The notes under the pieces are model-generated. The model was not told the DNA's origin and ran no database searches. It saw only the letters and a list, made by a program, of their open reading frames with translations. Shown piece by piece: positions 1,443 through 59,100 of a stretch of DNA of 64,000 nucleotides (positions are counted from its first letter, which is position 1; every line of letters starts with the position of its first letter). Location of the stretch: the NCBI RefSeq assembly GCF_055900595.2, contig NZ_CM148325.1; one strand, given 5' to 3'. A program made the position numbers and the translations under genes.

Positions 1443-3722
1443 ATGGATGACCAGTTAAAACAAAGTGCACTTGATTTCCATGAATTTCCAGTTCCAGGGA
1501 AAATCCAGGTTTCTCCAACCAAGCCTCTGGCAACGCAGCGCGATCTGGCGCTGGCCTACTCACCAGGCGTTGCCGCACCTTGTCTAGAAATCGAAAAAGA
1601 CCCGTTAAAAGCCTACAAATATACCGCTCGTGGTAACCTGGTGGCGGTGATCTCTAACGGTACGGCGGTGCTGGGGTTAGGCAACATTGGCGCGCTGGCA
1701 GGCAAACCGGTGATGGAAGGCAAGGGCGTTCTGTTTAAGAAATTCGCCGGGATTGATGTATTTGACATTGAAGTTGATGAACTTGACCCGGACAAATTTA
1801 TTGAAGTTGTCGCTGCGCTCGAACCGACCTTCGGCGGCATCAACCTCGAAGACATTAAAGCGCCAGAATGTTTCTATATTGAACAGAAACTGCGCGAGCG
1901 GATGAATATTCCAGTATTCCACGACGATCAGCACGGCACGGCAATTATCAGCACTGCAGCCATCCTCAACGGATTGCGCGTGGTGGAGAAAAACATCTCC
2001 GACGTGCGGATGGTGGTTTCCGGCGCGGGTGCAGCAGCAATTGCCTGTATGAACCTGCTGGTGGCGCTGGGGCTGCAAAAACATAACATCGTGGTTTGTG
2101 ATTCAAAAGGCGTTATCTATCAGGGCCGTGAGCCAAATATGGCGGAAACCAAAGCCGCATATGCGGTGGTAGATGACGGCAAACGTACCCTCGATGATGT
2201 AATTGAAGGCGCGGATATTTTCCTGGGCTGTTCCGGCCCGAAAGTGCTGACCCAGGAAATGGTTAAGAAAATGGCTCGTGCGCCGATGATCCTGGCGCTT
2301 GCGAACCCGGAACCAGAAATTCTGCCGCCGCTGGCGAAAGAAGTGCGTCCGGATGCCATCATCTGTACCGGCCGTTCCGACTACCCGAACCAGGTTAATA
2401 ACGTGCTTTGCTTCCCATTCATCTTCCGTGGCGCGTTGGACGTTGGTGCAACAGCCATCAACGAGGAAATGAAACTGGCGGCGGTACGCGCGATTGCAGA
2501 ACTGGCCCATGCGGAACAGAGCGAAGTCGTTGCTTCGGCGTATGGCGATCAAGATCTGAGCTTCGGCCCGGAATACATCATTCCAAAACCGTTTGATCCG
2601 CGTTTGATCGTTAAGATCGCTCCTGCGGTCGCTAAAGCGGCGATGGAGTCGGGCGTGGCGACGCGTCCGATTGCTGATTTCGACGTCTACATCGACAAGC
2701 TGACTGAGTTCGTTTACAAAACCAACCTGTTTATGAAGCCGATTTTCTCCCAGGCCCGCAAAGCGCCGAAGCGCGTTGTTTTACCGGAAGGGGAAGAGGC
2801 ACGCGTTCTGCATGCTACTCAGGAACTGGTGACGCTGGGACTGGCGAAACCGATCCTTATCGGTCGTCCGAACGTGATCGAAATGCGCATTCAAAAACTG
2901 GGCTTGCAGATCAAAGCGGGCGTTGATTTTGAGATCGTCAATAACGAATCCGATCCGCGTTTTAAAGAATACTGGACCGAATACTTCCAGATCATGAAGC
3001 GCCGTGGTGTAACTCAGGAGCAGGCACAGCGGGCACTGATCAGTAACCCGACAGTGATCGGCGCGATCATGGTTCAGCGTGGCGAAGCCGATGCAATGAT
3101 TTGCGGTACGGTGGGCGATTATCATGAACACTTCAGCGTGGTGAAAAATGTCTTTGGTTATCGCGATGGCGTTCACACCGCAGGCGCAATGAACGCGCTG
3201 CTATTGCCGAGTGGTAACACTTTTATTGCCGATACCTACGTCAATGACGAGCCAGACGCAGAAGAGTTGGCGGAGATCACCTTGATGGCGGCAGAAACTG
3301 TTCGTCGTTTTGGTATTGAGCCGCGTGTGGCTCTGTTGTCACACTCCAACTTTGGTTCTTCTGACTGCCCGTCGTCGAGCAAAATGCGTCAAGCGCTGGA
3401 ACTGGTCAGGGAGCGTGCGCCAGAACTGATGATTGATGGTGAAATGCACGGCGATGCAGCGCTGGTGGAAGCGATTCGCAGCGATCGTATGCCGGACAGC
3501 CCTTTGAAAGGTTCCGCCAATATTCTGGTGATGCCGAACATGGAAGCTGCCCGTATTAGTTACAACTTACTGCGCGTTTCCAGCTCGGAAGGTGTGACTG
3601 TCGGTCCGGTGCTGATGGGTGTGGCGAAACCGGTTCACGTGTTAACACCAATCGCATCCGTACGTCGTATCGTCAACATGGTGGCGCTGGCCGTGGTTGA
3701 AGCGCAAACCCAACCGCTGTAA
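1443..3722 (+). CDS. maeB: NADP-dependent malic enzyme (malic enzyme domain fused to PTA-like domain)
   Basis: 759-aa ORF; N-terminal malic-enzyme and C-terminal phosphotransacetylase-like regions; K-12 synteny. Confidence 0.93.
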
Positions 3723-3740
3723 TTCATTCTTAACTCTCAC

Positions 3741-3775
3741 GCTTACCCTGAATATTCAGGGTAAGCGGTTTTACT
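3741..3775 (+). terminator. rho-independent terminator downstream of maeB
   Basis: Inverted repeat cgcttaccctg-aatatt-cagggtaagcg followed by a T-run, 19 bp after the maeB stop. Confidence 0.6.
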
Positions 3776-4013
3776 GCAATATATTAGTAAAGCTTATTAC
3801 TAAGTTTTCGAGTAATAAAAAAGCAGCATATAAACTATCTCGATATTATTTTATTTATATTCATGCGTTGCATATGAAAGTTTATGCATCACAGTAAATA
3901 TCTCTCCATTCTTAGTGATCTACCTCACCTTTTAAACGCGCTTGCCGAATTTTGTTATTTACTCTGACGAAAAATTGTCACGATACACGCAAGTTTTTCA
4001 CAGGCGGCGACTC

Positions 4014-4349
4014 ATGGATAAAGAACGCATCATTCAGGAATTTGTGCCCGGCAAACAGGTCACACTGGCGCATCTCATCGCGCATCCCGGCGAGGAACTG
4101 GCGAAGAAAATCGGCGTTCCGGATGCGGGCGCAATCGGCATTATGACGCTAACACCCGGCGAAACGGCGATGATCGCCGGTGATTTAGCGCTGAAAGCCG
4201 CCGATGTGCATATCGGTTTTCTCGACCGTTTTAGCGGCGCGCTGGTGATTTATGGCTCGGTGGGTGCAGTAGAAGAAGCGTTATCACAAACCGTCAGTGG
4301 TTTAGGTCGCTTATTAAATTATACGCTGTGTGAAATGACCAAAAGTTAA
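4014..4349 (+). CDS. eutS: ethanolamine utilisation microcompartment shell protein EutS
   Basis: Internal ATG of track ORF 3942-4349; product [15 protein letters not shown]... (111 aa), BMC shell family; first gene of eut operon. Confidence 0.88.
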
Positions 4350-23045: not shown

Positions 23046-23481
23046 GTTTCATCCTGTCCATTATGATGCGCACGGTCGCCTGCGTTTACCCTTGCTCTTC
23101 TGGCTTGTGCTATTGCTTCAGGCGCGAACCTGGGTGCTGTTTGTCATTGCCGGTGCGTCGCGCGAGCAGGGTACTGCGCTGCTAAATCTGTTTTATCCCG
23201 ATCACGATAATTTCTGGCTGGGGTTGATTCCCGGTATTCCGGCGGTGCTGGCGTTTTTGTTGAGTGGTCGGCGGGCTTCATTTCCCCGTATCTGGCATGT
23301 GCTCTATTTTCTGTTGCTGTTGGCGCAGGTGGTTTTACTTTGCTGGCAACCGTGGCTGTGGCTGAACGGTGAATCCGTTAGCGGTATCGGTCTGGCGCTG
23401 GTGGTGGCGGATATTGTGGTGTTAATCTGGCTGCTGACCAATCGACGTTTACGCGCTTGTTTTAATGAAGAAAAAGAATAA
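23026..23481 (+). CDS. yfeZ: inner membrane protein YfeZ
   Basis: 151-aa hydrophobic ORF overlapping ypeA 3' end; start may be 6 nt downstream. Confidence 0.85.
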
Positions 23482-23541
23482 CGGCACTTTTTGGTGAATT
23501 TGCACTCCAAGCAACGTTATTGAATAACCAAAGGAAGTGAC

Positions 23542-25133: not shown

Positions 25134-25170
25134 AAGGCCAGCCAGTATCACAACTGACTGGCCTTTTTAT
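25134..25170. terminator. bidirectional rho-independent terminator between convergent yfeX and yfeW
   Basis: Hairpin ggccag...ctggcc followed by a T-run; located between the convergent stops. Confidence 0.6.
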
Positions 25171-35900: not shown

Positions 35901-35937
35901 GGATTAATAGCATTGGAGGCTGATGACAAACGCAAAA

Positions 35938-36038
35938 CTGCCTGATGCGCTACGCTTATCAGGCCTACAAGGTTCCTGTAATATATTGAATTAGCAATAT
36001 TTTGTAGGCCGAATAAGGCGTTTACGCTGCATCTGGCA
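35938..36038. repeat. BIME (two inverted REP units)
   Basis: tgcctgatgcgctacgcttatcaggcctaca and inverted tgtaggccgaataaggcgtttacgctgcatctggca. Confidence 0.7.
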
Positions 36039-36104
36039 TAAACAAAGTGCACTTTGTCAATAATCTGCTTTGTCGGCAGTTGTTGCTGCCGACAAATGCA
36101 GTTT

Positions 36105-53008: not shown

Positions 53009-53078
53009 ATGAGAGGCACGGGAACTGCCGGACATAGTTGGTCTGATAAGCGAAGCGCATCAGGCAATTTCGCAAATT

Positions 53079-53135
53079 GCAGATAGCAAAAAAGCGCCTT
53101 TAGGGCGCTTTTTTACATTGGTGGGTCGTGCAGGA
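53079..53135. repeat. 57-bp direct repeat copy 1: terminator hairpin plus 3'-terminal fragment of tRNA-Lys
   Basis: Identical to 53235-53291 (gcagatagcaaaaaagcgcctttagggcgcttttttacattggtgggtcgtgcagga); diverges after tgcagga. Confidence 0.8.
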
Positions 53136-53234
53136 TGACTCGCTTCGCTCGCCCTTCGGGCCGTCGCCGCGAGCGGCTCCGTTGTTTCGCTGCGCTCAAC
53201 TCGAACCTGCTGCAGGTTCGAATCTTTGAGTATC

Positions 53235-53291
53235 GCAGATAGCAAAAAAGCGCCTTTAGGGCGCTTTTTTACATTGGTGGGTCGTGCAGGA
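53235..53291. repeat. 57-bp direct repeat copy 2 (terminator plus authentic 3' end of lysV)
   Basis: Identical to 53079-53135; overlaps the 3' 17 nt of lysV. Confidence 0.8.
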
Positions 53292-53350
53292 TTCGAACCT
53301 GCGACCAATTGATTAAAAGTCAACTGCTCTACCAACTGAGCTAACGACCC
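53275..53350 (-). tRNA. lysV: tRNA-Lys (anticodon UUU)
   Basis: Reverse complement reads GGGTCGTTAGCTCAGTTGGTAGAGCAGTTGACTTTTAATCAATTGGTCGCAGGTTCGAATCCTGCACGACCCACCA. Confidence 0.95.
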
Positions 53351-58958: not shown

Positions 58959-59017
58959 CAGGCGTAAAAAAAGCAGGGAATTATCCCCGGCTTTTGTGGC
59001 TGATGACAAACAGAAAA

Positions 59018-59049
59018 ATGCCTGATGCGCTACGCTTATCAGGCCTACA
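59018..59049. repeat. REP element between pdeA and nupC
   Basis: tgcctgatgcgctacgcttatcaggcctaca, same unit as at 35938-35969. Confidence 0.7.
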
Positions 59050-59100
59050 TGGAATTGAAGCCGGGGAATTATCCCCGGCTTTTTAATTAATGAATTGGAC

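Follow-up and report, generated by a model that had tools for sequence, protein, structure and literature searches.

A REP-with-flank repeat in two spacers of an Escherichia coli window is probably the Z1-side end of BIME-1, complete at cysM-yfeS and inserted with duplication of a terminator hairpin at pdeA-nupC

The REP and BIME repeats of Escherichia coli have been catalogued from 1984-1994 onward. BIME-1, a Z1 REP, a linker L and a Y REP of E. coli, is said to be the same element as RIP and RIB, reportedly going back to Gilson in 1991, Boccard and Prentki as well as Oppenheim in 1993, and Bachellier in 1994. This composite of Z1, L and Y is described as a single-copy element, whose L often carries an IHF site (PMC3333891). 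Two REPs and L add up to ~100 bp, less than the ~140 bp published for the element (PMC1187871), which implies that conserved sequence exists outside the two REPs. The mechanism by which REP/BIME elements insert is still described as not established (bioRxiv 2026.03.23.713779; PMC3333891). RAYT binds E. coli REPs and cleaves single-stranded DNA at C/T, and the HUH Y1 family leaves no duplications (PMC3333891). REPs are also said to lack the signatures of MITEs (Delihas, 2011, PMC3184786).

The DNA considered here, referred to as the window, is a stretch of 64,000 nucleotides of E. coli in inverted orientation to K-12; over 36 kb the two share ~95.7% identity, which marks the lineage of the window as divergent. 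Only ~10-20 of 5,426 complete “E. coli” genomes match the window at ≥99%; its lineage is rare as well as divergent, and perhaps a cryptic clade. Two copies of the sequence GGCTGATGACAAAC..AAAA.T, followed by a Z1-type REP and ACA.GG, lie on the + strand at 35918-35973 and 58998-59053, each between the members of a gene pair that is annotated as convergent, cysM/yfeS and pdeA/nupC, respectively. Both gene labels had been assigned in the original prediction and agree with the RefSeq annotation of identical genomes. The similarity is contiguous over 56 nt with 4 mismatches, and a repeat search of the window extends the pair to 63 nt at 89% identity. The 29-nt REP core GCCTGATGCGCTACGCTTATCAGGCCTAC shows no difference between 35940-35968 and 59020-59048, and because the shared sequence reaches 22 nt upstream and 4 nt downstream of the REP palindrome, the similarity is not confined to the REP consensus. 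The original prediction, near-identical REP-with-flank copies of ~50 bp in two intergenic regions, therefore holds, although its coordinates (35921 and 58996 were given) are 2-3 nt off, its own string mapping to 35919-35969 and 58999-59049. Likewise, the extension that it noticed beyond the REP is real, but longer than the ~17 bp proposed, the arm measuring 24 nt, and its guess of a known REP subfamily proved apt: the REP belongs to the short Z1 type, with the outer arm of BIME-1 as its extension. A 19-nt flank pattern, GCTGATGACAAACNNAAAA, has two exact matches in the window and no third site when up to 3 mismatches are allowed (0.37 expected by chance at ≤3). At gathering thresholds, Rfam matched tRNAs and RtT alone in the whole window and neither repeat locus, and in the stretches compared, RefSeq NC_000913 has no annotated REP/RIP features.

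At cysM-yfeS, the repeat is part of a larger unit with the following features:

35916-36068, + strand: complete BIME-1 between cysM and yfeS (alignment, consensus)
35916-35939, + strand: left terminal arm GAGGCTGATGACAAACGCAAAACT, the previously noticed extension; matches the consensus GAGACTGATGACAAACGCAAAATT, with conservation falling sharply upstream, and aligned with 6 other loci
35940-35968, + strand: Z1-type REP, read as an iREP with its GTAG head on the - strand; exact match to GCCTGATGCGCTACGCTTATCAGGCCTAC
35969-36003, + strand: L linker, AT-rich, with an IHF-like core ATTCAATATATTA on the - strand (direct reading; conserved in alignments)
36004-36038, + strand: Y-type REP, inverted, GTAGGCCGAATAAGGCGTTTACGCTGCATCTGGCA; aligns with Y units at 5 other loci and pairs with Z1 in the predicted fold
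36039-36068, + strand: right terminal arm TAAACAAAGTGCACTTTGTCAATAATCTGC, imperfect inverted partner of the left arm (12/14 arm-to-arm; consensus TGAACAAAGCGCACTTTGTCAACAATCTGA)
36068-36098, unstranded: single terminator-like hairpin at the right end of the element (fold and sequence)

The linker core differs from WATCAANNNNTTR by 1 mismatch and is a predicted IHF site, read from the sequence alone. With Z1, inverted Y, an L with an IHF-like core, a length of ~150 bp, a single copy and a position at convergent 3' ends, the cysM-yfeS copy reads as a canonical BIME-1. Left of the element at this locus, there is no copy of the hairpin. K-12 has the element too, and Escherichia sp. MOD1-EC7003 carries it in the orthologous spacer position (L094); it is therefore old.

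The family to which both stretches belong was delimited by alignment. Seven loci, i.e., the two window copies and five additional E. coli loci found by BLAST (rhlE-ybiA, obg-dacB, entD-fepA, yphH-glyA and glpD), align over arm, Z1, L, Y and arm. A scan of species-representative genomes with the pattern GCGTAGCGCATCAGGCN{7,10}GTTTRT returned 108 loci with 133 oriented matches. The 133 matches come from nine Escherichia/Pseudocitrobacter genomes (E. albertii, E. whittamii, two more Escherichia species, two divergent “E. coli” representatives and three Pseudocitrobacter), and a Y REP is found at the expected distance in 100 of them. This sample is skewed to well-conserved copies, since the scan counted only exact matches to a pattern of 22 bases and none came from the main E. 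coli representative genome. Further matches were rejected: those in Prevotella and Segatella have the pattern alone in common and look like chance, and those on short contigs of a Collinsella MAG and of Bacillus coahuilensis look like contamination. The Collinsella contig (L056, 1.9 kb) carries a full Escherichia-type BIME-1 and the B. coahuilensis contig (L083, 184 bp) an Escherichia-type pattern match, both most likely enterobacterial contaminants, given that the two assemblies belong to unrelated phyla.

In its full form of ~153 bp, BIME-1 opens with a left arm of 24 nt and closes with a right arm of 30 nt, and between them lie the Z1 REP, an IHF-type linker L of 35 nt and the Y REP; the consensus of 95 copies runs GAGACTGATGACAAACGCAAAATT (left arm), GCCTGATGCGCTACGCTTATCAGGCCTAC (Z1), GTGGTTTCTGCAATATATTGAATTTGCATGATTTT, GTAGGCCGGATAAGGCGTTCACGCCGCATCCGGCA and TGAACAAAGCGCACTTTGTCAACAATCTGA (right arm). 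Conservation in this consensus sets in with GAGACTG... and ends with ...AATCTGA, with column values of 0.7-0.9 inside the element that drop to ~0.4-0.5 just beyond its ends. These 153 bp between sharp edges fit a BIME-1 of ~140 bp that includes outer motifs. The linker (~35 nt, AT-rich) has ..TGCAATATATTGAATTTGCA.. conserved across the aligned loci and the consensus. The arms, AGACTGATGACAAA and AGATTGTTGACAAA, are imperfect inverted repeats that match at 12 of 14 positions and thus form terminal inverted repeats; they pair with each other in the centroid fold of the cysM-yfeS element, and Z1 and Y pair as one hairpin in the predicted fold (z-score -6.6). As all aligned copies, whatever their locus or species, have the left arm conserved, the additional bases are part of the copied unit and not of the local spacer. 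We take the arms to be the published outer BIME “A/B” motifs of Gilson and Bachellier; a full-text literature search for the arm sequence gave unrelated primers as its sole matches. The genome-wide copy number of the extended unit, which the original prediction had suggested determining, was estimated with a 32-nt probe composed of the arm and 12 nt from the start of the REP, which is found at a median of 23 places per genome in 5,425 E. coli genomes.

Could the two stretches simply be ordinary REP palindromes whose flanks match by chance? REPs are abundant enough to make the idea reasonable, a 63-nt query giving at least 40 matches in most genomes. The flank pattern is exact at both sites, though, and has no other match in the window, the same arm precedes Z1 at the 133 sites in nine genomes, and the Z2-type REPs in the window have flanks that are unrelated to the BIME-1 arm. 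A chance resemblance thus has next to no probability and is ruled out by the alignments of the window pair, of the seven loci and of the 95-copy consensus. One further REP in the window retains part of the arm:

53037-53065, - strand: degenerate solitary Z1 REP with a partial arm (..GCGAAATT), 3 mismatches

The second stretch, at pdeA-nupC, is organized differently:

58973-58995, unstranded: hairpin copy 1, GCAGGGAATTATCCCCGGCTTTT, left and slightly degenerate; 20/20 core identity with copy 2; predicted terminator on the - strand
58996-59019, + strand: left terminal arm GTGGCTGATGACAAACAGAAAAAT of a truncated BIME-1 (alignment)
59020-59048, + strand: Z1-type REP, identical to the cysM-yfeS copy (exact core match)
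59049-59059, + strand: 11-nt remnant ATGGAATTGAA (alignment and consensus ends)
59060-59083, unstranded: hairpin copy 2, GCCGGGGAATTATCCCCGGCTTTT, identical to the single hairpin of the empty alleles

Here the Y unit and the full L are missing, with only 11 nt between Z1 and hairpin copy 2, so that in contrast to BIME-1 as described, this copy has no Y, no IHF site and little of L; it is a fragment and not a complete member. The 11 nt are either the start of L or the retained right terminus (AAT(C)TG/A) of an internally deleted element. The fragment is bracketed by hairpins of 23 and 24 nt, whose cores are identical at 20 of 20 positions. The repeat family as such is already known, and the two stretches are a canonical BIME-1 at cysM-yfeS and a truncated, lineage-restricted member at pdeA-nupC. 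While the original prediction was right that the two spacers share a repeat, it treated the copies as equivalent, which they are not: one is complete and old, the other truncated and recent.

The filled pdeA-nupC allele is present in 12 of 5,426 complete genomes, and five further genomes have it with IS421 in hairpin 2, for a total of ~17. The 64-nt insert is found at ≥99% identity in 19 records, consistent with 12 plus 5 genomes plus a plasmid. All other complete E. coli genomes have one hairpin at this position (...GTAAAAAAGCCGGGGAATTATCCCCGGCTTTTTT...), which in K-12 is split by IS186C. This rarity and the duplicated target hairpin around the insert bear out the earlier suspicion of a mobile or recombinogenic repeat. 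The genome RMDEC465 has the downstream variant of the window's lineage, TAATTAATGAATTGGAC, yet is empty at pdeA-nupC, and its hairpin reads an unmutated GCCGGGG with 6 A's before it, while the window's left copy reads AAAAAAAGCAGGG. A crossover in the shared core cannot regenerate the GCCGGGG of RMDEC465, so that the empty state would be ancestral in the window's lineage. The comparison of alleles therefore favours an empty ancestor and a derived filled allele.

The reverse polarity has to be considered: hairpin, half-BIME and hairpin might be ancestral, and nearly all E. coli might have lost the insert via the 24-bp direct repeats. Precise loss occurs elsewhere, at yfeX-pbp4b, where the elements of K-12 and E. 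whittamii are orthologous and O157:H7 and the window are empty, and at pdeA-nupC filled and empty alleles are found on both variants of the downstream flank. An ancestral insert is nevertheless unlikely, as just ~17 of 5,426 genomes are filled, the hairpin of RMDEC465 with its 6 A's is not obtainable by crossover from the left copy, and no scan match adjoins nupC in E. albertii, E. whittamii, E1V33 or MOD1-EC7003. The four combinations of filled or empty allele with either flank variant all exist, and this implies that recombination occurred no more than a few tens of bases from the insert. In EC42405 (L128), for example, a filled allele is followed by the typical E. coli downstream flank TTATGTATGG at the place that corresponds to 59084-59100 of the window.

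Alternatively, ectopic recombination or gene conversion might have made the pdeA-nupC copy directly from the one at cysM-yfeS, at a distance of 23 kb. Both are found within the 64 kb of the window and agree at 52 of 56 bases, but copies at unrelated loci, such as entD-fepA, are just as close to the insert (94.3% over 53 nt), the two spacers have no flanking homology, and no sequence outside the pdeA-nupC locus matches the 64-nt insert at ≥99%. For these reasons, the two window copies are not taken as donor and recipient, and direct copying between them is very improbable. As a whole, the explanation in which there is good confidence is that both stretches are Z1-side ends of BIME-1, that the cysM-yfeS element is complete and ancient, and that the copy at pdeA-nupC is derived and lineage-restricted, having been inserted into the bidirectional terminator of pdeA and nupC, whose hairpin was duplicated in the process.

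Since the whole 24-nt hairpin was duplicated, pdeA and nupC each still end at a hairpin. Read from the pdeA side, transcription meets hairpin 1 and then TTTTGT; from the nupC side, it meets hairpin 2 without a U-tract, the REP, and then hairpin 1 with U7. With the REP inside this order, the 3' UTR of nupC has gained a REP. Both hairpins are palindromic, and they are predicted to be able to pair with each other around it.

The pdeA-nupC hairpin has also been entered by insertion sequences. In K-12, IS186C (L001 4274-5618, nupC-pdeA) sits in the terminator hairpin, and an IS421-family copy (L129 ~2697-4033) occupies hairpin copy 2 of the filled allele in Z0117EC0005, likewise in E200086, E600003, 100117 and 100248. 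Both made the same 12-bp duplication, GGGAATTATCCC, in opposite orientations. Together with the BIME fragment, one hairpin would thus have been struck at least three times by mobile DNA. A 50-kb plasmid of Z0117EC0005 (NZ_CP098226.1, 26128-26322) has a segment, 99.5% identical, that runs from the 3' end of pdeA through hairpin 1 and the BIME fragment into hairpin 2. Its end coincides with the beginning of IS421 in the chromosome and suggests that the IS mediated the capture of chromosomal DNA.

Filled and empty alleles were also compared at two further loci, and at all three (pdeA-nupC, rutG-ymdF and yfeX-pbp4b) the empty allele always has exactly one hairpin. For rutG-ymdF (alleles drawn from the loci L043, L121 and L120), the empty allele with one hairpin is found in APEC O18 and another isolate, a forward allele (hairpin, element, hairpin) in a few genomes of SCPM-O-B-8794-like strains, and a reverse allele with the element the opposite way and two hairpins in ~1,700 E. 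coli genomes, e.g., NCCP12480. The forward and reverse elements are identical at 131 of 153 positions to each other and at 141 and 133 of 153, respectively, to the consensus. That they are closer to the consensus than to each other argues for two independent insertions into one hairpin, in opposite orientations. For the zapB-side element of SCPM-O-B-8794 (L041), the flanks are too diverged from E. coli for filled and empty alleles to be matched.

At yfeX-pbp4b, the polarity is the opposite one. The window is empty here:

25135-25164, unstranded: vacant target hairpin of 30 nt in the yfeX-pbp4b(yfeW) spacer (alignment with filled alleles)

O157:H7 is empty as well, with one 30-nt hairpin, whereas K-12 MG1655 (NC_000913 ~2549406-2549646) and E. 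whittamii have hairpin, element and hairpin with private variants in common. Between one and three elements lie between hairpin copies in E. whittamii, E. albertii, E1V33, MOD1-EC7003 and K-12. Judged by these alignments, the filled state is ancestral and the empty alleles represent precise losses between the repeats. Presence or absence alone consequently does not polarise an event. Loss at yfeX-pbp4b agrees with the mention of BIME-1 elements that are present or absent between strains in the passage of PMC1187871 that cites Bachellier (1997).

Duplicated hairpins can also be multiplied. In MOD1-EC7003, hairpin and element recur together in tandem every ~168-173 bp, up to ~7 times in an array (L119 120-1300; also L099, L101, L112 and L113), the outcome expected of unequal exchange between duplicated hairpins, and this genome has 51 pattern matches, as opposed to 4-17 in other genomes. 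Arrays and match number suggest that BIME-1 was active there not long ago. A single copy of BIME-1 per locus is thus not universal; both window loci lie between convergent genes.

How general the duplication is was assessed with 72 solitary full elements for which both flanks were available, by local alignment of flank against flank (score ≥10). Flanking hairpin repeats were found at 30 of the 72 (42%), compared to 0.7% of 3,000 mismatched left/right flank pairs. The repeats measure 16-33 bp (median 22), and they form hairpins over their whole length: the median number of unpaired bases is 0 on both sides, and the median dG is -13 kcal/mol. The left copy stops just before GAG..., the right copy begins at or after ...ATCTG, and the length of the duplication follows the local palindrome and is not fixed. 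No duplication is visible at the other 42 elements (58%), 25 of which have a strong hairpin on one side only, versus 12% of random 30-mers. Age is not supported as the reason for the missing duplications, since elements without them are not more diverged than those with them (p = 0.21). Short duplications of 5-8 bp at the elements without hairpin repeats are isolated cases and not enriched. One site outside a hairpin, at 23479-23483, is empty in the window and occupied by BIME-1 in E. albertii (L013), E1V33 (L078) and MOD1-EC7003 (L093); the element there has a 5-bp repeat (CGTTA) alone and an aberrant right arm.

The pdeA-nupC alleles and the comparison of K-12 with O157:H7 at yfeX-pbp4b provide clean before and after sequences. 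The mobile unit is the whole element including its arms, palindromic terminators are a preferred target, the entire palindrome is duplicated upon insertion, both orientations are used, and loss can be precise. A possible mechanism would start from an extruded palindrome with a single strand transfer at either of its two feet, and gap repair would then copy the palindrome, such that the length of the duplication would equal that of the palindrome; the duplicated hairpins might later mediate precise loss and tandem amplification. The corresponding hypothesis, which is put forward tentatively and at somewhat less than even odds, is that BIME-1 integrates specifically at palindromic hairpins by attack at both feet, the duplication being the whole hairpin with a length set by the target structure and not by the enzyme, and that it is afterwards excised precisely, inverted in place or amplified in tandem by way of these hairpins.

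RAYT would be the obvious candidate for the enzyme, though duplications are not expected of it. No rayT homologue adjoins any BIME-1 at the sampled loci, the sole homologue lying 6 kb from a BIME-1. One might argue that BIME-1 moves in a RAYT/IS200-like manner without duplication and that the paired hairpins are a separate matter, either a slippage-type tandem duplication that was later split or the product of selection for terminators. For binding and cleavage of E. coli REPs, RAYT is the sole enzyme known (PMC3333891), 58% of the elements have no duplication, and convergent genes may plausibly benefit from having a terminator on both sides. On the other hand, the repeats abut both ends of the element to the nucleotide with a length that tracks the palindrome, the empty alleles at three loci always have one hairpin, and both independent insertions at rutG-ymdF are duplicated. 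Separate origins of element and hairpin pair are accordingly regarded as improbable. BIME-1 may further be compared with REPIN/RAYT systems (Bertels and Rainey, 2011; Nunvar, 2010; Ton-Hoang, 2012). Both have inverted REPs that fold into one long hairpin, and BIME-1 is likewise non-autonomous, multi-copy, found in tandem arrays and persistent over long times. Nevertheless, the IS200/IS605-type Y1 leaves no duplication, whereas BIME-1 has 16-33 bp in 30 of 72 cases and at three filled/empty loci. Moreover, rayT of K-12 is flanked by Z2/Y and not by Z1, the REP of the BIME-1 described here, and the junctions read T/GAGAYTG and not C/T.

BIME-1 also resembles MITEs such as Correia, ERIC/IRU and RUP elements in being shorter than 300 bp and non-coding, with terminal inverted repeats, flanking direct repeats and filled/empty alleles; Correia elements have an IHF site as well, which in the BIME-1 linker is predicted. 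The duplications of MITEs are short and fixed (2-9 bp), while those of BIME-1 comprise the target palindrome of 16-33 bp, and to our knowledge, no parent IS with BIME-1-like ends has been described. IS186 and IS421 (IS4 family) similarly target GC-rich palindromes with a duplication that covers the palindrome core, but they are autonomous IS of 1.3 kb that duplicate 12 bp within the stem and not the whole hairpin. During CRISPR adaptation, Cas1-Cas2 performs strand transfers at both borders of a palindromic repeat, and gap filling duplicates the repeat, assisted by IHF in E. coli. Duplication of a whole palindrome would be a parallel to BIME-1 by analogy; the insert is a 33-bp spacer in one case and a 153-bp element with defined ends in the other, and we know of no evidence that ties Cas proteins to BIMEs.

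A hairpin-sized duplication is absent from Ton-Hoang (2012), Nunvar (2010), Di Nocera (2013) and Bertels and Rainey (2011; PMC3337134); the BIME papers of the 1990s were outside this comparison and may already have it. If BIME-1 does integrate at both feet of hairpins as hypothesized, the duplication would be the first sequence-level footprint of enterobacterial REP/BIME insertion and would represent a mode of transposition unlike both the fixed stagger of DDE enzymes and the duplication-free mode of HUH enzymes. Targeting of hairpins would account for the position of BIME-1 at 3' ends between convergent genes, and duplication of hairpins for its presence or absence between strains and for the origin of tandem arrays. 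The footprint thereby hints at how BIME-1 repeats spread. Apart from the BIME-1 pair, the window contains a 61-nt direct repeat at 53076-53136 and 53232-53292, which contains a terminator hairpin and the start of a tRNA in the valU-lysV tRNA cluster and overlaps, in the stretch 53119-53244, the Rfam match to RtT (RF00391, 51.6 bits).
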